Shown: positions 9,090 to 64,000 of the stretch, in pieces | How the letters are laid out: each line of letters begins with the position of its first letter | How positions within the stretch are numbered: position 1 is the stretch's first letter | NCBI GenBank assembly: GCA_023247275.1 | Contig: JAHFGT010000001.1 | Span: 6,265-70,264, forward strand | Reading direction: 5' to 3' | DNA: 64,000 nucleotides | Origin: Candidatus Omnitrophota bacterium | GTDB taxonomy: Bacteria; Omnitrophota; Gorgyraeia; Aquiviventales; Aquiviventaceae | The notes under the pieces: generated by a model | Seen by the model: only the letters and a program-made list of their open reading frames with translations | Told to the model about the DNA's origin: nothing | Database searches by the model: none | Program-made: the position numbers and the translations under genes

Positions 9090-9800
9090 CTAACTTGGGT
9101 CTTTCAGTTGCCGGAAGAGGTCATAGTACCCGGAGAGCTTGGCGCGAAACAGCCATGGATTCCGGTCCCGGTCAGTCACCTTAATGCGGCGCAAGGCAAA
9201 TCGATCGATGCCTCGCACCGGCGACAGCCGGTTGGTGGTAAATGCAGCCCCATACCCTGCCGCGCGGATCGCCGCTTGAACGTGCGAACTGAACCCGCCA
9301 ACCGGATAACTGATAAACCTGATCGGCTGGCCCACCTGCTGCTCGATGATCCGCTTCGACTCCACGACTTCTTCTTGCAGCCGCTCACGTGGCACCGTTG
9401 GCAAATAGCTGTGATGCATCGTATGGCAGCCAATCACCATCCCGTCTTGGCCCATCTCGCACACCTGGCTCCACGTCGCGAACCCTTGCAGGCCAACCTC
9501 ACTGGGGGTAATAAACACCGTCGCTGGGAACCCGAACCGCTTCAGCCGCGGCCAGGCAATCGTGTAGGTCTCTTCATACCCATCGTCGAAGGTAATCGCC
9601 ACGCTGCGCCGGGGCCATGGAGCGCCTTGGTCGATGCACGTGGCCAGCTCCTCGGCGCTGAGCACACGATACTGCTCTCGTGCCAGAAACGCGAGTTGCC
9701 GTTCAAACGATTCTTCTGACACGGTGGGCACATGGTCGCCCTTCGACGACCCGACCCGGTGGTACCCTAGAATGGGCAGATAATAGCGCCAACGACTCAT
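9090..9800 (-). CDS. Polysaccharide deacetylase (CE4 / NodB homology)
   Basis: VAITFDDGYEETYT and HTMHHSYL motifs. The maximal ORF extends to 9848. Met-16 at about 9800 gives an ATGA overlap with the upstream gene. Confidence 0.8.
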   Translation of the reverse strand: MSRWRYYLPILGYHRVGSSKGDHVPTVSEESFERQLAFLAREQYRVLSAEELATCIDQGAPWPRRSVAITFDDGYEETYTIAWPRLKRFGFPATVFITPSEVGLQGFATWSQVCEMGQDGMVIGCHTMHHSYLPTVPRERLQEEVVESKRIIEQQVGQPIRFISYPVGGFSSHVQAAIRAAGYGAAFTTNRLSPVRGIDRFALRRIKVTDRDRNPWLFRAKLSGYYDLFRQLKDPS

Positions 9801-10597
9801 GCGGCGGTCTTCGCCTTCGATCCGATCACCAACACATACCGGCCACACGTCGCCGGCTCACCGAGTTGCAGCTCAAGATCCAACCACTGGGCTCGCTGCG
9901 CCTCGGTCAATGTCTGCGGGCTAATGCCAGTCAACCAGGACAACCGATCGATCGGGTATAGGTTGATCGCTGGGACATCAACCGACGCGTACAACTCGCG
10001 GAGTTGTTGTTCATCTTGCCAGTTGTAGTACTTGCTGTCTCGAAACGACCCTTCGCTATCGTGGAGGACGCGTGCCGCCGTGGGTAAATCATACAACCGA
10101 ACCGCTTCCAGCAGATAGTAAAATGTTGTCCGGTGAGACACGCACAGCAACCCTCCAGGCCGGACCGCACCGGCTAATGCGGCTAGCATCGGCCGGTACT
10201 GCGCCGACAAATACAACACTTCGGCGCAGACAACAATATCATAGCGGGATTCAGGCCTCTTACGCAGCACCTCCACCAGGTCGCCTCGGATGAGTTTGAG
10301 GTCCACCCCAGCGTGCTGGGCATGCTCTCTGGCTCGACGGATCGCAAACCCGGATGTATCAATCCCGGTCACGTGAAACCCGCGCTGAGCAAACCGTACC
10401 GCCAGCCGACCGGCCTGACATCCAGCCTCGAGCAGCGTGGCCGGTGACGTGAGCCCGGCGTTGGCCGCGTGGCGCAACACCCGTTCGAGATACAGCTGAG
10501 CAAACCATGCCTCATTCGCATCTGCATACATATCATAGTAATCTGGGTCATAGTCTGCCACGGTTCGGAGAATCTTCCGCACGGTCTTATGCATCAC
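9797..10597 (-). CDS. Class I SAM-dependent methyltransferase
   Basis: 266 aa with motif I LEAGCQAGRLAVRFAQRGFHVTGIDTS. Confidence 0.75.
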   Translation of the reverse strand: MMHKTVRKILRTVADYDPDYYDMYADANEAWFAQLYLERVLRHAANAGLTSPATLLEAGCQAGRLAVRFAQRGFHVTGIDTSGFAIRRAREHAQHAGVDLKLIRGDLVEVLRKRPESRYDIVVCAEVLYLSAQYRPMLAALAGAVRPGGLLCVSHRTTFYYLLEAVRLYDLPTAARVLHDSEGSFRDSKYYNWQDEQQLRELYASVDVPAINLYPIDRLSWLTGISPQTLTEAQRAQWLDLELQLGEPATCGRYVLVIGSKAKTAA

Positions 10598-12440
10598 GCC
10601 GCTGTTCCCACCGCTTGACGTGTGTCACAAACGTCCCATAGGCTACCAACACGCTCCTGAACCATCCTGGCCAGCCGGCCTGGTATCCCTGTTCCCTGAC
10701 ATAGGTCTGCCAGAAGGTGATGGCCGGGCGCACCCAGAGTCGGCGCGCCAGATTCTGCTGGGGCGTGTCCGCGCCGGTCGCGGCCTCAATGGTGGAACCC
10801 TGATTCATCCGGACCAGATAGCCATCCACCGTCAAGCGCTCATGGGCGAACAGCCCGTGTGGCATCCTGGTCAGTTCCCAGCACTTGGCCGTGTTGATCA
10901 CATGCGTCCAGCTGTTCTGCAGCGCCATCACGCGCCCGTAGACGCCGTCGCGAAATCCCTGTTTCTTGACGTACAGCTTCCAAAATAGCTTGCCCGGACG
11001 TAGGACCCCACGGTACCACAGGTCCCACCGGCTGAACCGCTCGCCGGATTCAGCCCACTGTTGCGCGGCCAAACTGGTATACCGGTTCACCTTGCCGACA
11101 AACTCCTCGAATCGGTCGCAGAACCAGTGTTCGATGTCTGCGTGCAGCACTCCCAGCGGTTCTGGCACATTGGGCCGTTCATGCACCCGCCCCACATACC
11201 GGGCCTTCGAGCGCCGCAGCACATGCGGAATGTAATGGGTCCATGCGCCATAGGCCAGCCGGTGGCCTAAAAACACGCTTTGCCGACGGAACTTGTACGC
11301 ATCGTAGCGTCCATCATCCGTGCGAAGCAGTTGTTCGACCGCTTGCCGCATCTGCGGGGTGACCACATCGTCCGCATCGAGCTGCAGCACCCACTCGCCG
11401 GTCGCGGCATCCAGGCCGGCATTGCGTTCGTCCGCAAAACTTCCACTGAACCGCCGCTGAATCACGCGAGCGCCGTGCTGGCGAGCGATCTCTACGGTGC
11501 GGTCCTCGCTCAGCCCATCCACAACGACGATGTCGTCCACCCACGATAGATGGGAGAGGCATCGGGCGATCCGGCGCTCCTCGTTCTTCGTGAGGATCAC
11601 CACGGACAGACGACTGCGCGCGGCGGGTTGCTGCTGTTGCCCATTGGATTCACCCGACGCAGATGGCGATGCCTGTTGCCTCACCTGCGCGTCCCGGGAA
11701 TCGCGCGGATACCACCCTCGCCAGGCTCCGGCCCGAATCGTAACCAGTTCTTGCAGTGACCGGACGGCATCTCGAATCACGTGCACCTTCGACGACTCAT
11801 CGTTGGACCACACCACCGGCACTTCCTTGATTCGATAGCCGAGGCGGTGCGCGATGAACAAGATTTCTGCGTCAAACCCCCACCCCTCGATGCGTTGCCG
11901 GTCGAAGATCTCGCGCGCCGTCGGGGCGTGGAAGCACTTGAATCCACACGTGATGTCCGTCACCCCAACGGTGAGCAGCTGGTTCGTCAGCCAGGTAAAC
12001 ACTTTTCCCATGAACTCGCGGAGCGGCGGCTGATGAACGCGCACCTGCGCGCCGGCCATTTTCCGCGATCCAATGACCAGGTCATACCCCTGCTCCAGCC
12101 ACGGCGCGCATTTGGCCCACTCCTCAATGCGGGTGGAATGATCAGCGTCCATAAAGAGGATCCGCTGGCCCTGCGCGGCCAAGACCCCGCGCTTGACCGC
12201 CGCTCCTTTGCCGGCGTGCGGTCCGCCCACCACGCGAATCGGAAATCGATCGGCCAGCTCGCGCACAATCATCAGCGTGGAATCGGTACTGCCATCATCC
12301 GCCACGACCATTTCATGCGTCAGTCGTCGCGCGGTGAGATAGGCGCTTACCGATTTCACGGTTGACGCGATCGCGGCTGACTCATTAAAGGCCGGGATCA
12401 CCACCGACAGGTACGGCTGAGGACAACCTTCAACGGTCAT
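10587..12440 (-). CDS. Bifunctional family-2 glycosyltransferase: N-terminal polyprenol-phosphate glycosyltransferase (DPM1/ArnC/GtrB-like) plus a second GT2 domain
   Basis: 617 aa. Domain 1 has VVIPAFNESAAI...VVADDGSTDST...MDADHS. A Q/S-rich linker follows. Domain 2 has LSVVILTKNEERRIARCL...VVVDGLSEDRT. Confidence 0.8.
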   Translation of the reverse strand: MTVEGCPQPYLSVVIPAFNESAAIASTVKSVSAYLTARRLTHEMVVADDGSTDSTLMIVRELADRFPIRVVGGPHAGKGAAVKRGVLAAQGQRILFMDADHSTRIEEWAKCAPWLEQGYDLVIGSRKMAGAQVRVHQPPLREFMGKVFTWLTNQLLTVGVTDITCGFKCFHAPTAREIFDRQRIEGWGFDAEILFIAHRLGYRIKEVPVVWSNDESSKVHVIRDAVRSLQELVTIRAGAWRGWYPRDSRDAQVRQQASPSASGESNGQQQQPAARSRLSVVILTKNEERRIARCLSHLSWVDDIVVVDGLSEDRTVEIARQHGARVIQRRFSGSFADERNAGLDAATGEWVLQLDADDVVTPQMRQAVEQLLRTDDGRYDAYKFRRQSVFLGHRLAYGAWTHYIPHVLRRSKARYVGRVHERPNVPEPLGVLHADIEHWFCDRFEEFVGKVNRYTSLAAQQWAESGERFSRWDLWYRGVLRPGKLFWKLYVKKQGFRDGVYGRVMALQNSWTHVINTAKCWELTRMPHGLFAHERLTVDGYLVRMNQGSTIEAATGADTPQQNLARRLWVRPAITFWQTYVREQGYQAGWPGWFRSVLVAYGTFVTHVKRWEQRRDA

Positions 12441-13972
12441 GGAGTCATCCGTGCAGACACGGCGGCAGGCCGCTGGTGATAGAGGATCACCCGTGGAGCA
12501 TTTAGCACCGTGGCGAAATGGTGTGAGCCAGGATCTTCGCGATTTTGCCAGTAGACATCCGGGGCATCCAGCTCAATACGATCATAGGTCGCTTCGATAC
12601 GCCGGAAATAGTCGCCGAAAAAAAATGCGGCTGGCGTCCACCCGCGGCGAAGCACAATCCATTCTGGATAGGTCTCCTCGGCAAAGGTTGAGGGACGTTC
12701 GACCGTCAGCGCGGTATAGAACAACACGGTCCGATCATCGTACGGAATCTTCACCCGATCGCCAGGATTCGCATGGGCGCGCAGATACGCGACGATCCCT
12801 TCCATCGGGCCGGTATACGCATGCGTCAGCTCATAGCCCAGGTCGACCAGCGGAACGTGCCAATGCGTCGACTGCAATCCGGTAGTGAACAGCGCCAGGA
12901 CGGTGAGCATCCCACCGATGAGCCGAGAACGTTGAATGAGATCCACCAGCCACAGCGCCTCCACGAACACCAGCAAGGGGAGCGTGGGAATCAAGTAGCG
13001 CATATGTCGTTGGTCTGGGATGAGCAGAAACACCAGTTGGGCGCTGATCATGAGGATGACAAACCATCGAGCCGGTGGCCGGATCTGCTGCCACAGTCTG
13101 GCCATGAGCACCTGCCGGCGCGCGCACCAGACGATCAGTCCACTGACCCCCATCGCCGCGATGGGGAGCAAGAACTTGTTGGTGATCCGGATGTAGTATT
13201 CCAGATGGTCGAACAGGCGTCGTGGGTCGACATGGCCCAAAAACGCGGGTCGATAGGTAAAGATCGCCCAGGGCAACGTGAACAGGCCGACGACGATCGC
13301 CCCGATCCAGCCCCACCGGCGCGTCTGCCATCGACCCCACCAACCCTGATGCAGGACAACAGCCACCACAGCAGGAATCCATAGTCCAAAATTAGTATGG
13401 AACAGCAAGACCAGCAACACACTGAGCCAGACCGCCAAGCTTCTGCGCGGGTGTTCGAGCAACGCCAGGTAGGTCTGGCAGATTCCCAAGAGCAGCACGG
13501 TCGTCAGCGCATAGTATCGGCATTGGCGCATGTGCAACAGAAAGGGGACCGAGCAGATGAGCAACGCGACACTGAGCCGTTGGACCCGCCGGTCAGGCAG
13601 CAGCCGACCAGCCAGACGCCAGGTGAGGTACAGGCTTAGCAGCCCGCACGCCGCAAAGGGCAACCGTGCGGTCCAGGTCGATTGACCAGCCACTGCGAAC
13701 ACCGCGGCCAGGAGATAAAAGGGTAACCACGGACTGTAGACCCAGGATTCGCCTGGCCCATATCCATGCGAGGTGATTTCGATATAACTTCGACCGTCAT
13801 ACGCCCGAGGATACCCCTGCGTCACCACCGCCCTGGCCAGCACCGCGGTCTCGGCTTCGTCTTGCCATAAGTAGCCATTGTCCAGATGGCCGAACAGCAA
13901 CCAACACGCGATGGCCAATAGCCCGACGATGACCCAGTCGATCCGGACACGACGCGCCTGGGTCTCACCCAT
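12437..13972 (-). CDS. GT-C fold membrane glycosyltransferase (ArnT / PMT family, GT39/GT83-like)
   Basis: 511 aa, polytopic membrane protein. The N-terminus (YLWQDEAETAVLARAVVTQGYP...) is typical of 4-amino-arabinose or dolichyl-P-mannose protein mannosyltransferases. It is coupled to the upstream ArnC-like GT2. Confidence 0.65.
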   Translation of the reverse strand: MGETQARRVRIDWVIVGLLAIACWLLFGHLDNGYLWQDEAETAVLARAVVTQGYPRAYDGRSYIEITSHGYGPGESWVYSPWLPFYLLAAVFAVAGQSTWTARLPFAACGLLSLYLTWRLAGRLLPDRRVQRLSVALLICSVPFLLHMRQCRYYALTTVLLLGICQTYLALLEHPRRSLAVWLSVLLVLLFHTNFGLWIPAVVAVVLHQGWWGRWQTRRWGWIGAIVVGLFTLPWAIFTYRPAFLGHVDPRRLFDHLEYYIRITNKFLLPIAAMGVSGLIVWCARRQVLMARLWQQIRPPARWFVILMISAQLVFLLIPDQRHMRYLIPTLPLLVFVEALWLVDLIQRSRLIGGMLTVLALFTTGLQSTHWHVPLVDLGYELTHAYTGPMEGIVAYLRAHANPGDRVKIPYDDRTVLFYTALTVERPSTFAEETYPEWIVLRRGWTPAAFFFGDYFRRIEATYDRIELDAPDVYWQNREDPGSHHFATVLNAPRVILYHQRPAAVSARMTP

Positions 13973-14786
13973 CCGCGCGAGAAGCAGATGATTCTCGATA
14001 CTTGGCGTACGAGACGAATTGGTACAGGCCGCCGAACACCGCCGCGAACAACCCCCAAAATCCGTCCCGGTAACCCTGCTTACCGATAAAACTTCGCACG
14101 AACCGATCGATGGTCCGCCACAACGCCTTGCCCAGTGTCACGCGACGTCCGTCACGTACCCACTTCTTGGCCTCTAGCGTGGTCTGCCGGTCCAGCTTCT
14201 GCAAAAAGTCACTGACGCCGCTGTACGAGAAGTGGACCAGGTCAGCGGTCAGCGTGCCCCACGTACCAGTCAGATCAGCTCGAGGATGCACCTCAGCTTC
14301 TTCCCATCGAAACATCGATTTGCGGAACAACTTCAGTTGCGCGCTCGGATACCACCCGCCGTACCGCAGCCAGTGACGCCCAAGATAGTTGCGACGCGGG
14401 ATGGCGTACCCGGCATGCGGACCATCCCCTTGCACCACCTGGGCGATCTGTCTCTGCAATTCCGGGGTCACCCGCTCGTCCGCATCAAGGCTCAACACCC
14501 AGTCATGCACCGCCTGGGCATACGCCCAATTGCGATGCCGACCTTCCATCTCCATCTTGCGTGTGAACACACGTGCGCCAAGCGACTGAGCCATGTGGAC
14601 GGTCGCATCCTGGCTTTCATCGTCAACGATGACCACATCATCAGCCCACCGGACGCTGCGCAGGCAGTCTTCAATCCGACGCGCCTCGTTCTTCGTGATC
14701 ACCACGACTGAGACCGGGTGTTTGTTCGAGCCAAGGGCTGCCGGATCGATCGCTGAGGGTTGTACGTTCATCGGCTGTTCAACCAT
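13965..14786 (-). CDS. Family-2 glycosyltransferase (TKNE type)
   Basis: VSVVVITKNEARRIEDCLRSVRWADDVVIVDDESQD. Confidence 0.8.
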   Translation of the reverse strand: MVEQPMNVQPSAIDPAALGSNKHPVSVVVITKNEARRIEDCLRSVRWADDVVIVDDESQDATVHMAQSLGARVFTRKMEMEGRHRNWAYAQAVHDWVLSLDADERVTPELQRQIAQVVQGDGPHAGYAIPRRNYLGRHWLRYGGWYPSAQLKLFRKSMFRWEEAEVHPRADLTGTWGTLTADLVHFSYSGVSDFLQKLDRQTTLEAKKWVRDGRRVTLGKALWRTIDRFVRSFIGKQGYRDGFWGLFAAVFGGLYQFVSYAKYRESSASRADG

Positions 14787-15891
14787 GGACGATCTCTCCG
14801 CCAGCAGGATTGGCCACGCCGGTCATCGAGAGATGAGTGGGCGACTCGACCTGAGCACGATGCACCGATGCGAAGCCTGCAAAGATGCGTTCCCAACTAG
14901 GTGTGCCGGTCACGATCCGGTGAAACCGTTTTTTCTTCGTCAGCACCCAAGCCAGGATCTTCACGGCACGACCGAGAGAGGAGATCATCTTGGGCACGAT
15001 ATGGAGATGCCGCGGCAACCGATCCGTCGTCGGATCGATCCCAACGACCCAGACCTTATGCCCCCTGTTGGCCAGTTCGCGAATCTGCTCAGGCAACGGA
15101 TCCGGCAACCTGGCCTGCTTCCGTCCGAGGATCCAAGCGATCCGCTGCGGCTTGGCCTGCGGCCACTTGTGGTAAAACCGATTCGCATTGTCAGCAAACC
15201 GCTGATCACGGCTCGGGTCCTGTTTCATCGTCGCGCTGCCATGGTGCCAGACATACGCCCGCTCGGCCACGGCGCAATGAAATCCGGCTTGTCGGACGCG
15301 CAGCGAATAGTCTGCATCCTCGAAATACATGAACTGAAACTCCTCATCGAGGCCGCCGACGGCCTTCAGCACAGGCTGGGGAATCAGCAGGCAAAACCCC
15401 ACACCCCCCCAATGCTCGATCCAGGCATGGGGCTGGTGGCGACATTGCTCGGCAACTGAATCGATCGATTGCTCGGGTTGCGGCGACACGCCGAACTCGT
15501 TGCTCATCGGGTTAATCAGGCCAAGCGATCGATCCGATTCCCCGACACGGATCATCTCCTCCAACCACCCATCGGTCACCAGGATATCGTTGTTCAACAA
15601 GCAAACCCATGGCGCGGTCGCGTTCGCTAACCCGGTATTCATCCCTACCGCATAGCCGTCGTTACGAGGTCGCCGGATCACTTCAACCTGCACCCAGGAG
15701 GTTCCGGTCACCTCATGTAAAAATGCCTGCGAGGCCTGATCCGTGCTGCCATTATCCACGATGATCAGCCGGACCGGCAGCTGGGTCGATTTCAAGATTC
15801 GCTCAACGCACGGTCGGGTCAAGTCGACTCGGTTCCATGTCAACAGAATGAGGTCACAGACGCGCGGAGCGTCAGGTGGGACCGGTATCAT
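14779..15891 (-). CDS. Family-2 glycosyltransferase (paralog A)
   Basis: ILLTWNRVDLTRPCVERI...LIIVDNGSTDQ. The maximal ORF extends to 16011. The Met at 15891 gives a TGATG junction with paralog B. Confidence 0.75.
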   Translation of the reverse strand: MIPVPPDAPRVCDLILLTWNRVDLTRPCVERILKSTQLPVRLIIVDNGSTDQASQAFLHEVTGTSWVQVEVIRRPRNDGYAVGMNTGLANATAPWVCLLNNDILVTDGWLEEMIRVGESDRSLGLINPMSNEFGVSPQPEQSIDSVAEQCRHQPHAWIEHWGGVGFCLLIPQPVLKAVGGLDEEFQFMYFEDADYSLRVRQAGFHCAVAERAYVWHHGSATMKQDPSRDQRFADNANRFYHKWPQAKPQRIAWILGRKQARLPDPLPEQIRELANRGHKVWVVGIDPTTDRLPRHLHIVPKMISSLGRAVKILAWVLTKKKRFHRIVTGTPSWERIFAGFASVHRAQVESPTHLSMTGVANPAGGEIVHG

Positions 15892-17075
15892 CAACCCGGG
15901 TTCATCGCCAAGGGACGAGGTTGCCGCTGTCCGTACACCGTCTGGGCCTGGTTCAGATCGAGCAGTTGAGCGCGATGCACCCTGCGCAGTGCCGCCATCA
16001 TCCGTGCCCACCCAGCGGTCGGTGCCAAGATGAAATTAAACGGTTTCTTGCGCCGTCTGAGGATCCAGGCGGCCGCGGCCCATGGGGCCATTCGATGCGG
16101 AATGTGAAACCAATGGATATCCGCATGCGGCACCAACCCGACCGATTGAAACAACGTCTCCCCGGTCATACCGGACGGGATAGGACAGTAGACATAGACC
16201 ATGGTCCGTCGGCGAGCCCACTTCAGCAGACTGAGCAACCAATCCCGGAGCTCATCAGACCCAGGAACGATCGGCTCGAATCGTGGCCAGGCCAGCCGAA
16301 GTCGCTTGCCCCACCGCTCTTCGCACCACCGGCGGTTTCGCGCGAACAGCGCTTCGCGTTCTGGCATCTTGCTCACGGTCTGGTGTTCGGCATGGAACAC
16401 ATACGAGCCAGCCGCGACCACTGACTGGTACCCGGCCTGTTGAGCGCGCATACAGAAGTCTTCGTCTTCAAAGAAAATTCGCTCCACTTCTTCGTTCAAG
16501 CCGCCGATCCGGTCCATCACCTCGCGTTTAATCAGCATGCAAAATCCGATGCACATCCCGACCTCGGTATACCGGCCATGCAGCGACCGCCGACGCTCCG
16601 CGTACGTATCGAGCGAGATGCCGCGCCCTGGCCGATTGCCAAAGGTATTGCTCGTCGGGTTGACCACCCCAATGGTCGGATGGGTGGCGGCCACATAAAT
16701 CATCTCTCTGAGCCACCCGGTCGTAAAGCGCAGATCATTATTGAGCAGGCAGACATACGGCGCGCGAGATGCCCGGATCCCTTGGTTCATCCCGCGCGGG
16801 AACCCTTCATTCTGCTCGAGCTGCACCAGGGTCACGTCCTTAATCGCACCAGCCGGCCGCACCTGGCGTAACACCTCGCGCACAGGGGGTTCGCTGCCAT
16901 TGTCCACAATGACCAGCCGCGTGGGGAGCTTGGTGCACTGAAACAGGCTCTCCAGACAGGGCTGAGTCTGTTCAAGGTGGTTCCAACTCAGGAGAATCAG
17001 ATCACACAGCGGTTGATTCCGATTTCCTGTATGGACAGGATGCGTTAGCCGCTGCAAGGTCTCCGGGCTGTTCAT
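15891..17075 (-). CDS. Family-2 glycosyltransferase (paralog B)
   Basis: LILLSWNHLEQTQPCLESL...LVIVDNGSEP. Colinear with paralog A, so a tandem duplicate. Confidence 0.75.
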   Translation of the reverse strand: MNSPETLQRLTHPVHTGNRNQPLCDLILLSWNHLEQTQPCLESLFQCTKLPTRLVIVDNGSEPPVREVLRQVRPAGAIKDVTLVQLEQNEGFPRGMNQGIRASRAPYVCLLNNDLRFTTGWLREMIYVAATHPTIGVVNPTSNTFGNRPGRGISLDTYAERRRSLHGRYTEVGMCIGFCMLIKREVMDRIGGLNEEVERIFFEDEDFCMRAQQAGYQSVVAAGSYVFHAEHQTVSKMPEREALFARNRRWCEERWGKRLRLAWPRFEPIVPGSDELRDWLLSLLKWARRRTMVYVYCPIPSGMTGETLFQSVGLVPHADIHWFHIPHRMAPWAAAAWILRRRKKPFNFILAPTAGWARMMAALRRVHRAQLLDLNQAQTVYGQRQPRPLAMNPG

Positions 17076-18235: not shown

Positions 18236-18386
18236 CCCACCACCTGCCGGCGGCGCGCCCGCAGCGCAACGACGGGGTCGCGCGCCGGGAACGTGCGCCA
18301 TTCAGCACGATAGGCGGGTCTTGAGCGGCTCATCGAATCTCCGTGAAACGTTCCTGACCGCCATCGGCGGTCACCAGCAGGGGGGA

Positions 18387-23010: not shown

Positions 23011-23061
23011 GGCCGGCAGGTTACCGACACGGTGAAGGCGAGATCTGACCAGCGGGGTGGG

Positions 23062-24885: not shown

Positions 24886-24898
24886 CGCGTCGGTGGCG

Positions 24899-40198: not shown

Positions 40199-40315
40199 CG
40201 CCGAGTGGCCTCGCGCCGTTCCAACGTCAGCAGACTCATCGTACCCGTCAGAAGAACCCGAGCACTGCTGCGCTGGACCGTTCGGTAAGCTTCAGCGTGA
40301 AGAGTTGGAACGGCA

Positions 40316-54138: not shown

Positions 54139-54152
54139 TCTCGGCTGGGCGG

Positions 54153-55929: not shown

Positions 55930-55930
55930 C

Positions 55931-56608: not shown

Positions 56609-56616
56609 TCTCCTAG

Positions 56617-57780
56617 TTACAAGCGGCGGGAACGGAGGAGGTCGTGAAATGTGTTGATCAGCGTTGGACCATGGACGGTCAACGAGTACCGCTGTTCAAT
56701 GGTGCGCCGGCCGGCCTGGCCGATTCGCTGGCGCAAGGCGGGATCGTTCATGAGCCGGGTGAGCTTTTCGATCCATTCATCCTCGGTGCTGGCCAACAAC
56801 CCGTTGACGCCATCCTCAATGATCTCGCGGTTGACGCCAACCGCCGAGGCGACCACCGGCACGCCACATCCCATAAACTGAATCGCCTTAAAGCCGCACT
56901 TACCGCGAGCCCAGGGATCATCCCACAACGGGTACACGCCAATATCGCACCGCTGAAAATCGTCGACTTCAGTCGCCAACGCCCACGGACGAGACTCCAC
57001 CGGCACCCCGCCGAGTGTGAGTCCATCCGGAGCGCCAACCACCGAAAACCGAAACCGATGCGTGGTGGCCACTCGTTCAAGCACACGTCGGAGATCAGAC
57101 AGATATTTGGCGGTGGAATGGCTGCCAACCCATCCGATCGTCGGCACCGCATTCGGCTTAACACCTGATCGCGGACAAAAGCGTGTGGTATCGATGCAGG
57201 TTGGCAACACGACAACGCGCCGCGCATGTTCACGCGCGTACTCGGCCAGAAACTGGTTGCCGGCCATGACGACATCACAGCACGCCATCACCTGCTTGGG
57301 CGTGTCCAACCGCTCCAGTCGGGCGAGCATCGCTCTTCCCTGCCGCTGCGGCAGGAACATCGCGTCATCGTAATCATAGATCTTTGGCCCGGGAAATCGG
57401 CGGACATGGTCGAGCCCAATCGTCAAGCCGAGCGGAAAGGTTTCTCGATGGATCCACAGCACATCAGCCTGTCGAGCCGCCTGCCGTAGCCGACCTAAGC
57501 GGCGCACGGTGCCTGACAGGCTGTACGCGGCTTTCGCCGGCCACCACCCTCGTCGATACAGTACGCGCGCAGCCGTGTCTGAGTAAAACGAATCCAGCGC
57601 CAGCGAAAACCCGGCCTGCTCCAACATCGATCGCCATTGCACAATGCGAAACCGCGTGCTCGGCCCGGTCATCGGGTTGGTCGCCATCGCCAGGATCCGC
57701 TTGCGATGAATTGATGGCCTATCGGTGACCCATGGGCGGCGGCTCCGGCTCTTGACAATCTGATGCGTATCGAGTGCCAT
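56617..57780 (-). CDS. Family-4 (GT-B) glycosyltransferase
   Basis: GCGVPVVASAVGVNREIIEDGVNGLL. Confidence 0.8.
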   Translation of the reverse strand: MALDTHQIVKSRSRRPWVTDRPSIHRKRILAMATNPMTGPSTRFRIVQWRSMLEQAGFSLALDSFYSDTAARVLYRRGWWPAKAAYSLSGTVRRLGRLRQAARQADVLWIHRETFPLGLTIGLDHVRRFPGPKIYDYDDAMFLPQRQGRAMLARLERLDTPKQVMACCDVVMAGNQFLAEYAREHARRVVVLPTCIDTTRFCPRSGVKPNAVPTIGWVGSHSTAKYLSDLRRVLERVATTHRFRFSVVGAPDGLTLGGVPVESRPWALATEVDDFQRCDIGVYPLWDDPWARGKCGFKAIQFMGCGVPVVASAVGVNREIIEDGVNGLLASTEDEWIEKLTRLMNDPALRQRIGQAGRRTIEQRYSLTVHGPTLINTFHDLLRSRRL

Positions 57781-57829
57781 TAATCAGTAGTGCTCAATGC
57801 ACAGTCTCTGACACAAGGAGCGCGCTGCC

Positions 57830-58114
57830 ATGCCCACACCCAAGCCCACCACGATCCCAGCCGTGAAGGCGCGTGTGCGCTTCGGGGAAATTATGAAACG
57901 CGCCGCGCTGCAGCGAGAGCGCTTTATCGTTGAAAAATCCGGGTTGCCGGTGGTGGCTATCATCAACGCGACCGAGTATCTCACCTGGGTCCAAGAGCGC
58001 GAGGAGCGCTTTCACATCTTAGACCGCGTGAAAGGCCATCTCCCACGCGTCGCTCCTCAAGAGGTTGAACGCGACGTCCAGCGAGCCGTTCGTGCCATCA
58101 AGCTTCGTGATTAA
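57830..58114 (+). CDS. Type II antitoxin, Phd/YefM family
   Basis: 94 aa. RFIVEKSGLPVVAIINATEYLTW matches the Phd/YefM core. An AAGGAG RBS lies 9 nt upstream. Overlaps the PIN gene. Confidence 0.65.
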   Translation: MPTPKPTTIPAVKARVRFGEIMKRAALQRERFIVEKSGLPVVAIINATEYLTWVQEREERFHILDRVKGHLPRVAPQEVERDVQRAVRAIKLRD

Positions 58115-58523
58115 GGCTGTTCTCGATACCAACCAGTTCGTCAGTAGCCTGCTGACCCGAACAGGACCATCCGCCAAACTCCTCGAGGAGTGGCGAGCCC
58201 ATGCGCATCTGCTCGTCACCTCTCAAGAGATTCTCGCAGAGATCGAACGGGTGCTTCAGCATCCGCACATCGCCAAGAAGTATCGCATCACGGAAGCTGA
58301 CGTGACGGCCCTGATCGAGCTGCTGGAACACGAAGCCGTCGTCTTGCCCCAGACACAGCGTATCGACGTCATCACCGATGATCCCACCGATAACAAGATC
58401 CTGGCCTACGCGATCGACGCCCGAGCGCCGTACATCGTCTCCGGCGATCAACGCCTGCTGCGCCAGTACCACGGAATCGCCATCGTCACCGCCTGCGAAT
58501 TCCTCGCCGTCCTTCATCAGTAG
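58065..58523 (+). CDS. PIN-domain toxin (VapC-like ribonuclease)
   Basis: VLDTNQFVSSLL (first Asp), then conserved E and DDPTDNKILAYAIDA...VSGD acidic residues. The likely true start is the GTG at about 58107, overlapping the antitoxin stop (GTGATTAA). Confidence 0.75.
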   Translation: MNATSSEPFVPSSFVIKAVLDTNQFVSSLLTRTGPSAKLLEEWRAHAHLLVTSQEILAEIERVLQHPHIAKKYRITEADVTALIELLEHEAVVLPQTQRIDVITDDPTDNKILAYAIDARAPYIVSGDQRLLRQYHGIAIVTACEFLAVLHQ

Positions 58524-59725
58524 CACGTGATCCGCTTGATTGACATATCCTGTCCCGGCAATAGAGCGACCAGTAGCGGGACGTGCCGATGGAGAGGGCG
58601 AAGATTGACTCGGCGACGTGGCGACACCGGGCTGGCAGGGTCGGGTCGGCCCAGAGCGATTCGAGCTGATCCAGCGCCGCGTCATAGGCCGCGCTAGTGC
58701 AGGAGCGCAAGACCACGCCAACGTTGTTGGATTCAATGATGGCGCGGATATCACCGACCTGGTCGGTCGCAATGACCGGCAGGCCGGTGGCGAAGTACTC
58801 GCCCAACTTGGTCGGGCACACCCCCTGCCATGAGGTGCCGGACTTGATCAGTGACAAGCCGACATGGGCTTGGCCAAGCCACGAGGGGATCTGTTCTGGG
58901 GAAACGGTGTGGATCGTCACCGCCCGAGCAGCCGGCGACCGGCGCAACGGTTGTTTGGCTTCCTCTATATCACGGGTCAGGATGATGAACCTGGCCTCTG
59001 GAAACCGATGCAACGCTCGCTCGAACAACTGGGCCATCTCGTCCATCAAATACCAGGTGCCCAGCGAGCCGGTATAGAGGAATACCGGGGCTGAAACAGG
59101 CGGAAACCGCCTCGGGACCAGCGCAAACCGATCCAGATCCACGCAGGTGGGGATCACCGTCACGCGCGGGGTTGAAAGACCTGGCCACTGTTCAACCACC
59201 TCGCGGGCCGCATCGCTGAGCGTGACAATCTCATCCGCATCAGCCAGCAGCTGATGCTCAAGCCGCTTGGCTAGTCGGTACAGCCGGCTAGTGGATGGCC
59301 ATTGGCCTGAATCCACACGACCATCCGCCCAAAACCCCCGCATGTCGAAGATCATCCGGACCTTGCACAGTCGTTTCAAGCACCACGCCATCGTGGCTGG
59401 GATGTAGCTTCTGGCATGCACGAGCTCAATGGACGCTCGCGTGACGACCCGCCAGCCGACGATAATCCCGATGACCAGATCATACGTCGTGGCCAACAGC
59501 GACGGGCGCTTATGATACGTCAGCGGGATCCACTGGATCCCGCTGCGCGCCAGGCTAGCGTGAGCGGATTGGTAGAGGTCGACTTGCCGTCGATCAGCAG
59601 GCTTCTCAAACGAGATCAACGTGATCCGAGCGCCCTGGGCGGCGAGCTCGCGCACATACGGCTGCACCTGCGACTGGCCCAACGGTTCGAGCAGCCCGTC
59701 GTACGTGATATACAGCACGCGCGGG
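58486..59725 (-). CDS. Family-4 (GT-B) glycosyltransferase
   Basis: VLYITYDGLLEPLGQSQV N-terminus and C-terminal GT1 motifs. The maximal ORF extends to 59883 but its 5' part covers the terminator hairpin. A GTG start near 59725 is likely. Confidence 0.75.
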
Positions 59726-59763
59726 GTGTGCAGCGCAGTAGCGCTGGGTTGCTGCTGTGAAAT

Positions 59764-59794
59764 GACCGTCACTTCAAGGGCCGAAGTGACGGTC
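59764..59794 (-). terminator. Perfect 12-bp stem / 7-nt loop hairpin immediately after the methyltransferase stop codon
   Basis: GACCGTCACTTC-AAGGGCC-GAAGTGACGGTC. The stop codon (59793-59795) lies in the right arm. A third copy of GTCACTTC follows. There is no strong U-tract. Confidence 0.5.
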
Positions 59795-60587
59795 ACTTCG
59801 CGAGCGCCCATACGGGATTCTCCTGTGGGGATCGCGTCATCTCTGCTGGAGGGGTCGCGACCACGACGTACCGCCAACAGCACCAGCGGCCCAGCTGCAG
59901 CCTTAGGATCAGTTTGGACAGCAGCGTGTCGAGCGCTAGGACGAGTTGCTCAACCGCGCGAGCGTTCGGCACCAGCTCTGGGCCGATATACCCGCCGCTC
60001 AATGGCAATGCGATCACGTCCCGATACTCGACGCGCTCAATCGTCCATCCAGACCGATGCAACATGCGGCGCGCCTCATCCATCGGGAGGGCTTCACACG
60101 ATTCATGCCCCACTAACCGACGCGCCACGCGCAGCGCAGGCATCATGTTGGACTCGAACACGATCACTCGTCCACGAGTCAGCCGGGCCGCCTCAGCAAG
60201 CGCGCGATCAGATTCCAGGTGGTGCAGGCTGTCGCGGAACACTACCGTATCGAACGATTGGTCTGCGAACGGCAGCCGGTACGCATCGCCGACCACTACC
60301 GGGATGTCGCCTAGCACTTCCCTACCGGCCTGCAACCCTGCTTGGTCCATATCAACGCCGATCGCTGTCAGGCCGTGCGCACGCAACGAGCTGACCAATG
60401 CGCCATAACCGCAGCCGATCTCGAGCACTCGTGGCCCCTTGACCAGCGTGCGCAACTGCGCGTCCTGACACGCCACGACCCGGCCCCAGAACCGCTGAAG
60501 CCTTGCCGCGAGCTGCCGGTGTTCGGCCAGGCTCTGCGGACGTTGGTCACGATGCGCAGGGTGCGGGCGCGTGGGCGCGTGAGCCAT
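59793..60587 (-). CDS. Class I SAM-dependent methyltransferase
   Basis: RVLEIGCGYGALVSSLRAHGLTAIGVDMD. The maximal ORF extends to 60788. Confidence 0.75.
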   Translation of the reverse strand: MAHAPTRPHPAHRDQRPQSLAEHRQLAARLQRFWGRVVACQDAQLRTLVKGPRVLEIGCGYGALVSSLRAHGLTAIGVDMDQAGLQAGREVLGDIPVVVGDAYRLPFADQSFDTVVFRDSLHHLESDRALAEAARLTRGRVIVFESNMMPALRVARRLVGHESCEALPMDEARRMLHRSGWTIERVEYRDVIALPLSGGYIGPELVPNARAVEQLVLALDTLLSKLILRLQLGRWCCWRYVVVATPPAEMTRSPQENPVWALAK

Positions 60588-61539
60588 CAGATATCTCGTG
60601 CTGCCATGCGGAATCCCGATGCGCCGTTGCCAGCGCGCATGAGGTGACAAACAGATGGCTCTGAGCCAACTGCTCGAACATGCTCTTGAACAGCGCCAGC
60701 TTGCGTGCCACCGGCAACCGGATGCCGGGATGATGGTTGAGCCGAGGATCGATCTGATCCTGATCCGGCCCGAGGACGTCGACCGCATGCATCACAAACA
60801 CGATGTCTTCTGACCGCAGTTGCCGGAGCGCTGCGGCCGCGTACGCTGATCCCCAACTCAGGACTGCCGTGCCATAGAACGGCAACCGCGACATCGGCAG
60901 CGTCGCCACCGGGAGCTCTACCAGCGGTCTGGCCGGATCGACTCGCCACAACGACTGCGCCGCGGGACGGTATGGCTGTCGGGGCGCGCGCAGGAAACTC
61001 AGCCGACCCATCGTGCCATGCTCAGCCTGGCGACGCAGCCGGGTCCATATCTGCATCAACCGGATCGGGATGGATAGTGTCGTCGGAAACACCGAGGAAT
61101 CGTACCAGTAGCCGCGCGATTCCAACAAGGCTAACAACGGCTCGTCAACATCATACCCAGGATTACGAAACCCTACCGGCCGGTTTCCGGTCCAGGACAC
61201 GATCGCCTGCTCAGCGGCGATGAGTTCCTGCTCTTGCGCCTGAGGCGACCACCGGGTCATCCCATACGGATGCGTGTGGCTGTGGTTAGCGATCTCATGG
61301 CCGGCAGTAATCAGCTCGCGCAGCCACCGACCAGCCGACCCGCGCACCTCTGAGCCGACGACGAACACGGTCGCGCGGATCTTATGCTCGTTGAACAGCT
61401 CGATCAGCCGAGGAATCACCAGGTCGTAAAACGGCTCTGGTGCGTCGTCGGATGGATAGCCATAGTACCGCAGCAGCGTCGCAAATGAATCCATATCGAC
61501 CTGCACCGCGCACTGAGGCCGAACCGCACCAGCGGTCAT
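60547..61539 (-). CDS. Polysaccharide deacetylase-like (CE4) protein
   Basis: RATVFVVGSEV...GHEIANHSHTHP... Confidence 0.7.
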   Translation of the reverse strand: MTAGAVRPQCAVQVDMDSFATLLRYYGYPSDDAPEPFYDLVIPRLIELFNEHKIRATVFVVGSEVRGSAGRWLRELITAGHEIANHSHTHPYGMTRWSPQAQEQELIAAEQAIVSWTGNRPVGFRNPGYDVDEPLLALLESRGYWYDSSVFPTTLSIPIRLMQIWTRLRRQAEHGTMGRLSFLRAPRQPYRPAAQSLWRVDPARPLVELPVATLPMSRLPFYGTAVLSWGSAYAAAALRQLRSEDIVFVMHAVDVLGPDQDQIDPRLNHHPGIRLPVARKLALFKSMFEQLAQSHLFVTSCALATAHRDSAWQHEISDGSRAHAPAPCAS

Positions 61540-62207
61540 GTGGACTCCAGGTCTCGGACATACACAACCGAGTCGCCACCGAAGATTCGGATCGGCCCGG
61601 CCGGCGCAAATCCAAGATTGCGATAAAAGATGTTGGCCATCAGATTGTCAGCCCGGACCAACGCCCGCACCTGCTTGCCACGGTGGTCGCGCAGACAGTC
61701 AAGCGCGGCCTGACCCAGCGCCTGCGCGACCCGGATATTGGTGCGCTGCATGAACTGCAGCGACCGGTAGGCCGGGGCCACCGCCAGCGACAACATCTCG
61801 CTGGGCGCATCGTCTGGCATGGCCGGGGGATGGCTCAGGAAGGCGACCGCCTCACCGACAGCGCCCCATCGACTCGGCTTGAGAATCACCGTTGCGAGGA
61901 ACACGCCGACCAGCGCACCCCAATGGCGGCGGGCGACGGATTGGAACAAATGCGCCCAGTCGGTCGTCGCCGCGATGAACCCGGCCACCTGTCCGTCGTA
62001 CTCATACACCACACAGCAGGCCGTTGGCGATTCCGGAATGTAGCGATAGTAGAACCGCGCGAGAAACTCCTCTCCGAGCCGGGCGAGGATTCCTTCGCGC
62101 AACTCGTCGGCATGCAGCCGGGCTACGGCCGGAATATCCTCCGCGCGCAACGAACGGACGCATCCAACGCTCACGCGCGGCTGGTCAATGGATGCCACGA
62201 TCAGCAA
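61536..62207 (-). CDS. GNAT-family N-acyltransferase
   Basis: 223 aa with a GNAT core (VVYEYDGQVAGFIAAT...LAVAPAYRSLQ). Confidence 0.7.
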   Translation of the reverse strand: MLIVASIDQPRVSVGCVRSLRAEDIPAVARLHADELREGILARLGEEFLARFYYRYIPESPTACCVVYEYDGQVAGFIAATTDWAHLFQSVARRHWGALVGVFLATVILKPSRWGAVGEAVAFLSHPPAMPDDAPSEMLSLAVAPAYRSLQFMQRTNIRVAQALGQAALDCLRDHRGKQVRALVRADNLMANIFYRNLGFAPAGPIRIFGGDSVVYVRDLEST

Positions 62208-62424
62208 GGATCTCCTTAATCGCGCGGACGCTGACCATCTGCGACCACTCTTCCACGGTAAACTTCACACCGAACTGGAGCTCCAGCTCAGTGATCAGCG
62301 CCAAATGACCCAACGAATCCCACAGCGCCACCGTGCCTGGGGCAGCCTCGTCCGGGAGCTGCTCCACGTTGAACGCCTTGCAAAAAATCGCCTGCAGCCG
62401 CTCATCCGTCGTGACAGCCATCAC
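62185..62424 (-). CDS. Acyl carrier protein (phosphopantetheine-binding)
   Basis: 79 aa. The WDSLGHLALI motif is the canonical DSL serine attachment site. Confidence 0.8.
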   Translation of the reverse strand: MMAVTTDERLQAIFCKAFNVEQLPDEAAPGTVALWDSLGHLALITELELQFGVKFTVEEWSQMVSVRAIKEILADRGIH

Positions 62425-64000
62425 GCGATCGCCTCCACCGCAGCGTCGACTCGAATCAGTGGTTCCTCAGGCCATGGCCGGGCCAGATCGCGTTGCCACC
62501 GGATCGTTTCGCCCTTTTGTCCGGCCGGTTCAAACCCAGCCTGGGCAAACAATCCCTTGACCACGTGATTTTTTGCTGTCGGCGCATAGCGGCCGACCAA
62601 CACTGAGCCACCGGCTGCTTGCGCGGCTTGGCACAATGCGCCAAGAAACGCGAACTCGATCCGCCGACCCATCACCCGGCAGCTCATCAGCAGCGTGTCC
62701 AGCTCCCAGACGTCTGCCATCATCCGCACAATCGCCACACCAACCAGCCCAGCATCACCAAACCGATCCTGCACGCGAAGTGTGTACACACGCGCGGTTG
62801 AAGACTCGAGCAGGTCCTGGATGTCTCGCTGTTGATATCGCCGTGTGGTCAGATTGAACTGGTTCGTCTTCTGCGTCAGCTGCGCCACACGAGCCACCTC
62901 TGCGGGTTGCATACGCTGCACGCTGATGACGATCTCCAGTGACTTCAAGTAGTCTTCCAGCGTACATGTCTGGGCCTGGGTCTGTTGCCGAGCCTGTTCT
63001 GCCGCATACAGCTCAGCGCGGCGCTGATCCTCTTCTGTGGTCTGCAACCGCTCGAAATCGGTGAGCGAGCTCAGCGCGCTGGCATATTCCAATGGATCCG
63101 TCGGCCAGTCAGGGGTCAACACTTGTGGCAACAGGTGGCGCATCAGCTCGCGCTCAAACGGCTGGTCGTCGATGAAGACCAGGCTATCCAAGCCAAGGTT
63201 CAACTCTGCAGCCAGCGCCTGCATGTTGGTCGCCTTGTCCTGCCAATTGATCCGCATCGCGGCAACATGGTGTTCGCGCAGCACCATACCTGGGTGGCTG
63301 CGCAAGACGGCGAGCGCATCGGCCGGGTTGTTCTTACTGTTAATCGCCAACAGGATCCCCCGCGCTCGTAGGTCCAAGAGCGCCCGCTGGAACGCCACAT
63401 AGCCGGTGCCTGGTCCATCGTCGCCGAGGACCAGCGCGTCCGGCCCGTCCTCGCCTACGACCCCTCCCCAGAGGGTGTTGTCAAGGTCCACCACCACGCA
63501 TTTTCTGGTCAAACCTTTGTAGGCTTTGACGAACGCGAGCATCGCCCGAGCAAGGTGCCGCATGAACTCAGGGGCCCAGGGAATCTGCGCGACCGACTTC
63601 AGCCGCTCATCGCACATGCGCTGTTTGCCGAAAAAGGCGGCGAGCCGGTCCAGGTCGAGCACGCGCAGTTGCGGGTGCTGGGCACACCGCGTCGCCAGCA
63701 TGGCGTTGAGCTGTGTGGTCAGCGTCGCGGCCGGTGATGGATCAAGTCGGTACGGCTCATCGCTGGGCACGACAAGATTATGCCAGATGAGCAACCCCTT
63801 ACTGTGCCGAGTAAACGCGTCGCTCAGCTCATTGATCCGGGTGATGAGTGGTTCGCTCGCTGATCCGTCCGATGCGCCAGCCACGATCCCAGCCGCCGCT
63901 GCCGCGACCACCACCAGTTCAGGGGCGAAAGCGTACAGGCGCCCATTGGCATCGAGCAGCTCAGATTGAAATTGATTGTAGCCGCCGCACCAGATGTCGA
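62421..64000 (-). CDS. FkbH-like protein (HAD-IIIC phosphatase domain + C-terminal GNAT-like domain); N-terminus beyond window edge
   Basis: VVVDLDNTLWGGVVGEDG...ILLAINSKNN...LVFIDDQPFERE is the HAD-IIIC / FkbH signature. The reading frame continues open upstream of the listed Met to position 64000 (..DIWCGGYNQFQSELLDANGRLYAFAPELVVVAAAAAG..). Confidence 0.7.
   Translation of the reverse strand, partial: DIWCGGYNQFQSELLDANGRLYAFAPELVVVAAAAAGIVAGASDGSASEPLITRINELSDAFTRHSKGLLIWHNLVVPSDEPYRLDPSPAATLTTQLNAMLATRCAQHPQLRVLDLDRLAAFFGKQRMCDERLKSVAQIPWAPEFMRHLARAMLAFVKAYKGLTRKCVVVDLDNTLWGGVVGEDGPDALVLGDDGPGTGYVAFQRALLDLRARGILLAINSKNNPADALAVLRSHPGMVLREHHVAAMRINWQDKATNMQALAAELNLGLDSLVFIDDQPFERELMRHLLPQVLTPDWPTDPLEYASALSSLTDFERLQTTEEDQRRAELYAAEQARQQTQAQTCTLEDYLKSLEIVISVQRMQPAEVARVAQLTQKTNQFNLTTRRYQQRDIQDLLESSTARVYTLRVQDRFGDAGLVGVAIVRMMADVWELDTLLMSCRVMGRRIEFAFLGALCQAAQAAGGSVLVGRYAPTAKNHVVKGLFAQAGFEPAGQKGETIRWQRDLARPWPEEPLIRVDAAVEAIA

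Follow-up and report, generated by a model that had tools for sequence, protein, structure and literature searches.

The 64,000-nucleotide (nt) stretch analyzed here and called the window throughout (positions 6,265 to 70,264 of contig JAHFGT010000001.1, assembly GCA_023247275.1, Candidatus Omnitrophota) carries a very large locus of glycan genes that appears to be built from a conserved backbone (approximately 7.9-29 kb in window coordinates) and a genome-specific extension (29 kb to at least 66.8 kb). Between 9090 and 64000 we counted 48 genes on the minus strand and two on the plus strand, the latter being a toxin-antitoxin pair. This agrees with an earlier interpretation made without database searches (hereafter the sequence-only reading), which had claimed at least 45 genes in this interval, all but two of them on the minus strand. 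The coding fraction of the interval amounts to 0.994. Among the 47 same-strand junctions, 21 overlap by 1 or 4 nt and 17 by 7-41 nt (38 overlaps in total), five are gaps of at most 14 nt and four are gaps of more than 15 nt, so that 43 of the 47 either overlap or are separated by no more than 14 nt. The earlier statement that most junctions are 1-4 nt overlaps or gaps under 15 nt strictly holds for 26 of the 47, with another 17 being the longer overlaps. Start codons were picked by us near upstream stop codons; gene calls made independently on identical metagenome contigs display the same junction pattern. To judge from the stop/start overlaps, translation may be coupled along long co-directional transcripts. 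The larger gaps lie at 18302-18386 (85 nt), 23011-23061 (51 nt), 40199-40315 (117 nt, 62% GC, the largest same-strand gap besides the toxin-antitoxin insertion) and 57781-58485 (705 nt, holding the toxin-antitoxin pair). Two plus-strand open reading frames (ORFs; 18321-19100 and 52037-53320) were rejected as genes, as they lack family matches and overlap well-supported minus-strand genes.

In the direction of transcription, the backbone runs from a GT4-DUF218 fusion through a GT4 glycosyltransferase, an epimerase, a WecA-like enzyme, a Wzy_C protein, two GT9 enzymes, a GT1_2-type enzyme, a second epimerase, several GT2 enzymes, a GT-C enzyme, a CE4 deacetylase and a GT28-like enzyme to UDG and PriA (genes are on the minus strand here and below unless stated otherwise). 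The first gene encodes a fusion of a GT4 with an ElyC/SanA/YdcF (DUF218) domain (27104-29008; PF02698 2.8e-27 and PF13692); the best 120 matches listed for it are 50-68% identical and approximately 620 amino acids (aa) long, and almost all named ones are from Omnitrophota, a phylum in which this fusion is conserved and widespread. It is followed by the glycosyltransferase GT4-a (25894-27120; PF00534 1.2e-31), the sugar epimerase/dehydratase epimB (24899-25906; PF16363 1.3e-56) and a WecA/MraY-family initiating polyprenyl-phosphate sugar-1-phosphate transferase (23062-24885; PF00953 1.4e-33, PF13727 7.9e-09). The fusion was always seen upstream of this GT4, epimerase and WecA block. The Wzy_C protein, a member of the O-antigen-ligase/O-oligosaccharyltransferase family with approximately eight hydrophobic segments (21751-23010), matches PF04932 with 67.1 bits against a cut-off of 31.7 (2e-18). 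Beyond it lie two GT9 (heptosyltransferase-family) genes (19633-21764; PF01075 2.4e-26 and 1e-35), which stay below the cut-offs of the NCBIfam models for heptosyltransferase I, II and III, a 134-aa protein without family match (19232-19636), a GT1_2-type glycosyltransferase (18387-19235; PF13524 2.4e-26) and the NAD-dependent sugar epimerase/dehydratase epimA (17072-18301; PF01370 4.8e-56), which reaches no equivalog cut-off.

The remainder of the backbone comprises GT2-d (15891-17075), GT2-c (14779-15894) and GT2-b (13965-14786; PF00535 6.5e-18 to 6.1e-21 for the three), a GT-C membrane glycosyltransferase of the ArnT-like PMT_2 type with approximately eight hydrophobic segments (12437-13972; PF13231 1.3e-08), a double GT2 (10587-12440; PF00535 5.1e-47 in two stretches), the S-adenosylmethionine-dependent methyltransferase MT-a (9797-10594; PF13649 6.8e-15), the polysaccharide deacetylase CE4-a (9090-9800; PF01522 1.6e-26) and an MGDG-synthase/GT28-like glycosyltransferase (7928-9022; PF06925 7.4e-20, PF04101 4.6e-17). 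The N-terminal domain of the double GT2 resembles polyprenyl-phosphate hexose transferases. An ArnC-like enzyme had been called in the sequence-only reading, and matches of that kind do exist, yet all of them (NF041391, PpgS and ArnC models) are sub-threshold. The GT28-like gene, beside UDG and PriA, forms the conserved low-coordinate anchor of the locus.

The two-part organization emerges from a comparison with a handful of relatives, covering windows of ±10 kb and using precomputed gene tables, since longest-ORF strand counts are unreliable in high-GC relatives due to spurious antisense ORFs. The named relatives of PriA (55-65% identity) all belong to Candidatus Omnitrophica/Omnitrophota. 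Genome L089 is collinear with the window from 29008 down to 18387 over nine orthologues with 35-75% identity, in the order GT4-DUF218 (59%), GT4 (44%), epimerase (75%), WecA fusion (60%), Wzy_C (43%), GT9 (45%), GT9 (61%), 134-aa protein (35%) and GT1_2 (47%). The more distant L090 retains the same core, and its epimerase is 54% identical to epimA. At the other end of the backbone, variable glycan genes in L084, L085 and L086 give way to CE4, GT28, UDG, PriA, Def, Fmt and a pair of GalT-like genes, and the GT2 and methyltransferase genes of the window are shared as well. Here CE4-a has a 63% identical orthologue at the same position in L084 and L085, the GT28-like protein is 50% identical to its counterpart at the same place in both, MT-a has a 65% identical orthologue in L084, and GT2-d and GT2-b are 68% and 59-62% identical, respectively, to L085/L084 genes. 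The 1- and 4-nt overlaps are common in the relatives' loci too. Upstream of the GT4-DUF218 fusion each genome differs, with methyltransferases, radical SAM enzymes, asparagine synthase and GT4s found there. The synteny comparison proposed with the earlier claims thus supports a collinear backbone and reveals that the upstream part differs per genome. The picture of one unusual, self-contained supercluster starting at 9090 has to be abandoned in favor of a composite region in which a backbone of approximately 7.9-29 kb is joined to a genome-variable part.

In the window, the extension starts with the deacetylase CE4-b (29016-29810), a FemAB-family protein (29798-30820) and an unusual 664-aa fusion of a Trm112-like zinc ribbon, a methyltransferase and a partial DegT-type aminotransferase (30814-32808). 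GT2-e (32808-33722) and a 620-aa soluble protein (33691-35553) come next. The latter has no Pfam match and a distant likeness to TIGR04326, the model of a Leptospira 'surface carbohydrate biosynthesis protein' (7.5e-16, 57.6 bits vs. a cut-off of 250). A second unusual fusion, 638 aa long, joins a GT2 to a zinc alcohol dehydrogenase (35553-37469) and is located near a D-2-hydroxyacid dehydrogenase (37462-38424) and the CMP-Kdo synthetase KdsB (38421-39200). KdsB scores above the curated NCBIfam cut-offs (292.8 bits vs. 255 for NF009905, 284 vs. 193 for NF003952 and 163.5 vs. 155.2 for TIGR00466). Further on are the methyltransferase MT-b (39197-40198), a radical SAM/SPASM enzyme (40316-41356), a fused TMD-NBD ABC exporter (41340-43202; PF00664 and PF00005), MT-c (43199-44077), an uncharacterized protein of 612-654 aa termed hyp654 (44074-46038), MT-d (46035-47285) and an LIC12162-like protein (47275-49272).

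A module of the ulosonic-acid type occupies 49266-55929 and comprises SDR-a, MT-e, SDR-b, a xylose-isomerase-like TIM barrel, a class IV aminotransferase, a HAD phosphatase, a CTP_transf_3 cytidylyltransferase and a NeuB-family synthase. The earlier call of a NeuB set stands as far as the NeuB domain (PF03102 8.7e-64), the cytidylyltransferase and the phosphatase are concerned. In the NCBIfam search, the NeuB-family protein does not reach the equivalog level of a canonical Neu5Ac, pseudaminic or legionaminic acid synthase (219.5 bits vs. 399.65 for NeuB_NnaB, 176.6 vs. 340.25 for PseI), and neither NeuC nor PseB/C/H/G or LegB/C/H/G companions were found, the matches to LegB, PseB and LegC being weak and below cut-off. 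Next to this module lie a MarR-family regulator of the EPS-associated type (55931-56608; PF13412 1.6e-07; TIGR04176 MarR_EPS 62.9 bits vs. a cut-off of 88) and GT4-b (56617-57780; PF13692 1.4e-14). Beyond the toxin-antitoxin pair follow GT4-c (58486-59811), MT-f (59793-60587) and CE4-c (60547-61539), for which the gene calls on the identical contig L083 agree with ours, a GNAT acyltransferase (61536-62207; PF00583 1.5e-07), a 78-aa protein resembling an acyl carrier protein (ACP; 62185-62421) and an FkbH-domain protein that runs from 62421 past the window end (TIGR01686 308 bits vs. a cut-off of 146.65). The ACP-like protein has no Pfam or NCBIfam match and is supported only by a DSL motif and a match to the 'putative acyl carrier protein' 2lml in the PDB (E 4.4e-05). 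The FkbH domain adjoins this putative carrier, as an FkbH-ACP glyceryl/acyl loading module requires.

Altogether the Pfam and NCBIfam searches identify 14 glycosyltransferase genes (six GT2, five GT4/GT1-type, two GT9 and one PMT_2 GT-C), accompanied by two epimerase/dehydratases, aminotransferases, KdsB and the NeuB-family synthase, and the window totals three CE4 deacetylases and seven methyltransferase-domain genes. The domain searches thereby uphold nearly all product calls of the sequence-only reading, including the WecA-like initiator, the CE4, methyltransferase, GT2, GT4 and GT9 genes, the O-antigen-ligase-like (Wzy_C) protein, KdsB, the radical SAM enzyme, the ArnT-like GT-C (PMT_2) and the acyl-carrier module (FkbH plus ACP-like protein). 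The 'teichoic-type' enzymes are not among them: no match to a TagF-, TagB-, TarI-J- or LicD-type enzyme was obtained by Pfam or NCBIfam in any ORF between 9090 and 64000.

Neither 9090 nor 64000 is a true limit of the locus. Three separately assembled ENA metagenome contigs (L001, L002 and L083) are 98-100% identical to the window and jointly cover 27104-43202 and 59793 to past 64000. L083 extends approximately 2.8 kb past the window end, where FkbH is completed at 602 aa and is preceded upstream on the same strand by a MaoC-SDR fusion and a second PMT_2 gene; the glycan genes therefore reach at least approximately 66.8 kb in window coordinates. At positions lower than 9090, this strand goes on with the GT28/MGDG-synthase-like gene, UDG, an OlsE-like fatty-acid hydroxylase, PriA, Def, Fmt and two GalT-like genes. 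The tight packing ends at PriA, and the housekeeping junctions in L085 are looser with larger gaps. Long ORFs cover the minus strand over the entire 64 kb and not just from 9090, and the co-orientation runs through the neighboring housekeeping genes both in the window and in L085. The GC content is uniform (approximately 61%, range 0.59-0.63) and the GC skew is negative in every 2-kb bin of the window, so that essentially all genes lie on the G-rich strand. This strand and skew pattern fits better with a strong leading-strand gene bias than with a property of the cluster itself.

The export and ligation functions of the locus depend on a small set of membrane proteins. Four polytopic proteins were found in the cluster, namely the PMT_2 enzyme, Wzy_C, the WecA fusion and the ABC exporter. 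A resemblance to MOP flippases is seen in none of them, and no ORF of the cluster gives a Pfam match to Wzx (MOP), Wzz, Wza or the ABC-2 permease Wzm. The fused exporter is also the only ABC protein of the cluster, which has no separate Wzm permease and Wzt ATPase. Given four polytopic proteins and no Wzx, Wzz, Wza or Wzm, a route over WecA, an ABC flippase and a ligase remains, in which the fused exporter would be the only candidate flippase. The earlier designation of this protein as MsbA-like is correct in that it is a fused ABC exporter, while the MsbA equivalog cut-off is not reached (381.5 vs. 602 bits); the corresponding values are 492 vs. 725 for HepA_fam and 247 vs. 1000 for PglK.

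The initiating transferase matches the WecA and MraY models of NCBIfam below their cut-offs and is itself a fusion, in which residues 375-599 correspond to positions 1-226 of the WcaJ and EPS_sugtrans models. Its C-terminal part consists of transmembrane helices and a CoA_binding_3 domain, like the non-catalytic N-terminal half of WbaP/WcaJ. The same WecA-CoA_binding_3 fusion is found in L089 (14477-16279, 60% identity as given above). Full-length matches to the fusion come from Omnitrophota, Candidatus Scalindua and metagenome-assembled genomes of a Desulfovibrionaceae and a Fibrobacterales member, and L090 has an unfused WecA-like version of 344 aa.

We propose, with a probability of roughly 0.55, that the window holds an envelope-glycan locus of Omnitrophota that functions like a combined lipopolysaccharide (LPS)-core/O-antigen (rfb/waa-type) locus and is organized in two layers. 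In this model, the WecA-like enzyme would start the glycan on undecaprenyl phosphate at the cytoplasmic face, after which the soluble GT2, GT4 and GT9 enzymes and three large uncharacterized proteins would elongate it with modified sugars. Flipping of the finished lipid-linked glycan would fall to the single fused ABC exporter, the Wzy_C protein would ligate the glycan to an acceptor, most likely lipid A-core, and GT-C (PMT_2) enzymes would add periplasmic residues from polyprenyl-phosphate sugars. Lipid A-core is favored as acceptor because the GT9 pair adjoins Wzy_C in all relatives examined and the locus encodes a true KdsB. The extension would supply unusual sugars and decorations by means of KdsB and two dehydrogenases, the NeuB-family module with its own cytidylyltransferase and phosphatase, seven methyltransferases, two more CE4 enzymes, the radical SAM enzyme and the FkbH-ACP-GNAT acyl-loading module. 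A decorated surface glycan, as put forward in the sequence-only reading, is the most reasonable inference from this gene content.

Several observations weigh against this proposal. No genes for lipid A (lpx), KdsA, WaaA, ADP-heptose synthesis or lpt functions occur in the 64-kb window, and the Wzy_C family spans both WaaL ligases and O-oligosaccharyltransferases without telling them apart. The ABC exporter scores higher on HepA and MsbA than on PglK. Among the cluster proteins that were run against NCBIfam, a curated cut-off is reached only by KdsB and by the FkbH domain; therefore, the sugars and linkages cannot be named. In addition, the region may comprise more than one transcription unit, divided by the toxin-antitoxin insertion and the three gaps of 51-117 nt.

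The proposed organization has counterparts in well-described systems. The rfb loci of Leptospira measure 3.8-121 kb, with a median of approximately 99.5 kb in pathogens (PMC4758666), which removes the claim that the size of the Omnitrophota locus is unusual. Similar to the latter, they are very large and gene-dense and combine a conserved chromosomal position, with a MarR gene first, with variable content (PMC4758666; PMC13111663). Both share a MarR-type regulator, many methyltransferases and glycosyltransferases and NeuB-type genes, as well as obscure families (TIGR04326, LIC12162, spiro-SPASM and MarR_EPS) for which the matches here are weak and far below the cut-offs. Leptospira uses Wzx, Wzy and a WcaJ-type initiator, whereas the initiator of the Omnitrophota locus is of the WecA/MraY family and its exporter a fused ABC protein, with no Wzx; the phylum differs as well. 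Genes of the O-antigen pathway of Helicobacter pylori are scattered and do not form one locus. The route over WecA, an ABC flippase and a ligase is known from the H. pylori O-antigen and is related to N-glycosylation (PMC2841628). The resemblance to this WecA-Wzk-WaaL system comprises a WecA-family initiator, a single fused ABC exporter as candidate flippase in place of Wzx and a WaaL-family ligase, yet the exporter is nearer to HepA and MsbA than to the PglK type of the related Campylobacter N-glycosylation, whose cut-off it does not reach.

Closer in phylogeny, hypervariable and strain-variable polysaccharide cassettes of approximately 25-26 kb have been described for Omnitrophota, and the passages of these reports considered here mention an O-antigen ligase, an LPS exporter, heptosyltransferase II and many glycosyltransferases (bioRxiv 10.64898/2026.05.20.726742; 10.64898/2026.06.07.730766). 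As far as these passages go, phylum and kind of content are shared with our locus, which at 58 kb or more is larger and lacks the Wzc/Etk and AlgI/AlgJ components of the cassettes; a backbone anchored beside GT28, UDG and PriA does not appear in the searched passages of the two preprints. With the enterobacterial waa and rfb loci, the locus has in common the GT9 family, a WaaL-family protein, a WecA-type initiator, KdsB-type CMP-Kdo activation and sugar-nucleotide modification genes. Unlike in enterobacteria, core-type and O-antigen-type genes are merged on one strand, there is no ops/JUMPStart element on the coding strand, Wzx/Wzy/Wzz and Wzm/Wzt are absent and the GT9 enzymes are below the equivalog cut-offs. 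The size, single-strand layout and mixed content are thus not unprecedented, and the layout recurs in the relatives examined. Read in this manner, the locus is the phylum's own version of a familiar LPS/O-antigen-type locus and not a new kind of system.

The alternative that survives best, possible in our view and on balance doubtful, is that several independent glycan loci merely abut, i.e., a backbone of the LPS-core/ligase kind, a locus for capsule or exopolysaccharide that has its own ABC exporter, and a module for nonulosonic acid or protein glycosylation, all placed on one strand by general strand bias. The same-strand orientation that reaches unrelated housekeeping genes in the window and in L085 and the window-wide negative GC skew with all genes on the G-rich strand speak for such an arrangement, as do the different conservation patterns of backbone and extension and the breaks formed by the toxin-antitoxin insertion and the 51-117 nt gaps. 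It is also favored by the mid-region location of the MarR_EPS-like regulator, which has a promoter-like site, and by the LIC12162-like/MT/hyp654 module, which occurs by itself on two unrelated contigs, L087 and L088, with a related ABC exporter close by and accompanied by KdsA-like genes. Yet approximately 58 kb contain one initiator, one exporter and one ligase-like protein, whereas separate loci would each need their own, and packing at the presumed boundaries between sub-loci is no looser than inside them.

An unlikely variant retains the single locus and changes the product: the PriA-anchored backbone would build a lineage-specific, non-LPS envelope glycoconjugate via the WecA fusion, the ABC exporter and Wzy_C. 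It would contain a new ulosonic acid made by the NeuB-like enzyme, the class IV aminotransferase and the TIM barrel, would be heavily methylated and acylated by FkbH/ACP, and the three families of approximately 600 aa would act as new transferases. Omnitrophota are nano-sized, and a host-dependent or episymbiotic lifestyle has been inferred for them in the part of the literature considered here (bioRxiv 10.64898/2026.06.07.730766). If this variant were true, the glycan could govern attachment to hosts.

More improbable still is a system for protein O-glycosylation or for an S-layer or pilin glycan, in which Wzy_C would be an O-oligosaccharyltransferase of the PglL/TfpM type and not a WaaL ligase. 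A 'putative O-glycosylation ligase' (5.5e-12), which is with IctB the best NCBIfam match of Wzy_C, and TfpM (9.6e-04) point in that direction, and the route over WecA, an ABC flippase and a transferase is common to such systems (PMC2841628). All these Wzy_C matches, however, are far below the cut-offs, and both the GT9 pair beside Wzy_C in all relatives examined and the bona fide KdsB are typical of LPS core assembly. Finally, an assembly or binning artefact producing a chimeric contig, which the metagenomic origin of the sequence would permit, is extremely improbable in view of the three separately assembled contigs identical to 98-100% over the stretches given above, the uniform GC content and the gene order repeated in related genomes.

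For the LPS-core/O-antigen-like locus that we favor, the conserved backbone represents a good marker and a target for heterologous expression, whereas the variable extension probably underlies strain-level surface diversity. Omnitrophota are uncultured and very small bacteria, and their surface is the likely interface with hosts and phages. The locus also places the TIGR04326-like, LIC12162-like and PFTS-related families beside ulosonic-acid and ABC-exporter genes, which narrows the hypotheses on their roles.

These three large soluble proteins of approximately 600 aa show no significant homology among each other by BLASTP and hhalign; the sole signal in these comparisons is a 41-column C-terminal motif with 16.6% probability. 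Sequence searches against the PDB return nothing meaningful for the three, and no PDB relative for the 620-aa TIGR04326-like protein. For hyp654, a word-based search finds four close relatives among 5.8 billion proteins and a profile search 243 family representatives among 1.84 billion proteins, some distant ones matching TIGR04417 ('polysaccharide biosynthesis PFTS motif protein'). An AlphaFold2 model of hyp654 from a 5-sequence alignment (mean pLDDT 55, pTM 0.44) is too poor for a fold search. Members of the hyp654 family always adjoin a methyltransferase, and their surroundings include ulosonic-acid genes and an ABC exporter. The LIC12162-like/MT/hyp654 set recurs on L087 and L088 with cytidylyltransferase and KdsA-like genes nearby, and in L087 the order LIC12162-like, MT, hyp is kept with the ABC exporter approximately 6.5 kb further downstream. 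To judge from this recurrence, the set is a portable module within the extension.

The plus-strand pair between GT4-b and GT4-c does not belong to the glycan machinery. It consists of a Phd/YefM-like antitoxin (57830-58114), borderline at 20.4 bits vs. a phd_fam cut-off of 20.8, and a PIN toxin (58065-58523; TIGR00305 70.3 bits vs. a cut-off of 29.15; PF13470 1.6e-18). The antitoxin precedes the toxin and both ORFs overlap at 58065-58114, as in type II toxin-antitoxin pairs. Because the homologue of GT4-b directly follows that of GT4-c in L090, the pair is recognized as an insertion. An 11-nt direct repeat with 10 of 11 bases alike flanks it (TTAATCAGTAG at 57780-57790 and TTCATCAGTAG at 58513-58523). 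A few 10/11 repeats are expected by chance in 1.1 kb according to a rough estimate, and the repeat as a trace of the insertion is suggestive only. On the minus strand the first copy reads ...ACT GAT TAA TG, which has the look of a pre-insertion 1-nt stop/start overlap of GT4-c and GT4-b. In the second copy TAA has become GAA, and GT4-c reads on for nine codons, antisense to the end of the PIN gene.

The numbers of sigma-70 promoter and intrinsic terminator matches did not depart from chance, and none of these matches fell into the four larger gaps; Rfam yielded no match at the gathering threshold. The RfaH ops/JUMPStart motif GGCGGTAG is absent from the coding strand and has a single match on the non-coding strand, as chance predicts. 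The best sigma-70-like match in its third of the window (TTGACA, 17-nt spacer, TATTGT; 10/12) is situated at 56574-56602 on the minus strand at the start of the MarR_EPS-like gene; if this promoter-like site were used, the transcript would start near an ATG at 56566, the promoter counts overall being at chance level. Within the 117-nt gap at 40199-40315, a 13-bp stem (GCCGTTCCAAC...GTTGGAACGGC) encloses the entire gap, with a fold energy modestly better than that of shuffled sequences (z = -1.75). A Shine-Dalgarno-like motif stands ahead of few start codons in the window.

At the low-coordinate end, the fatty-acid hydroxylase between UDG and PriA (6365-7195; PF04116) has the ornithine lipid hydroxylase OlsE as best NCBIfam match (83 bits, below cut-off). 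It is missing at the same position in L084 and L085 and hence looks like a lineage-specific insertion. In the conserved PriA-Def stretch, a TPR gene on the opposite strand was seen in L084; all other genes of this region in L084, L085 and L086 are on one strand. Two tandem GalT-like/DUF4921 paralogues end the conserved order in high-GC Omnitrophota, and glycolysis genes come next in L085 and L086.

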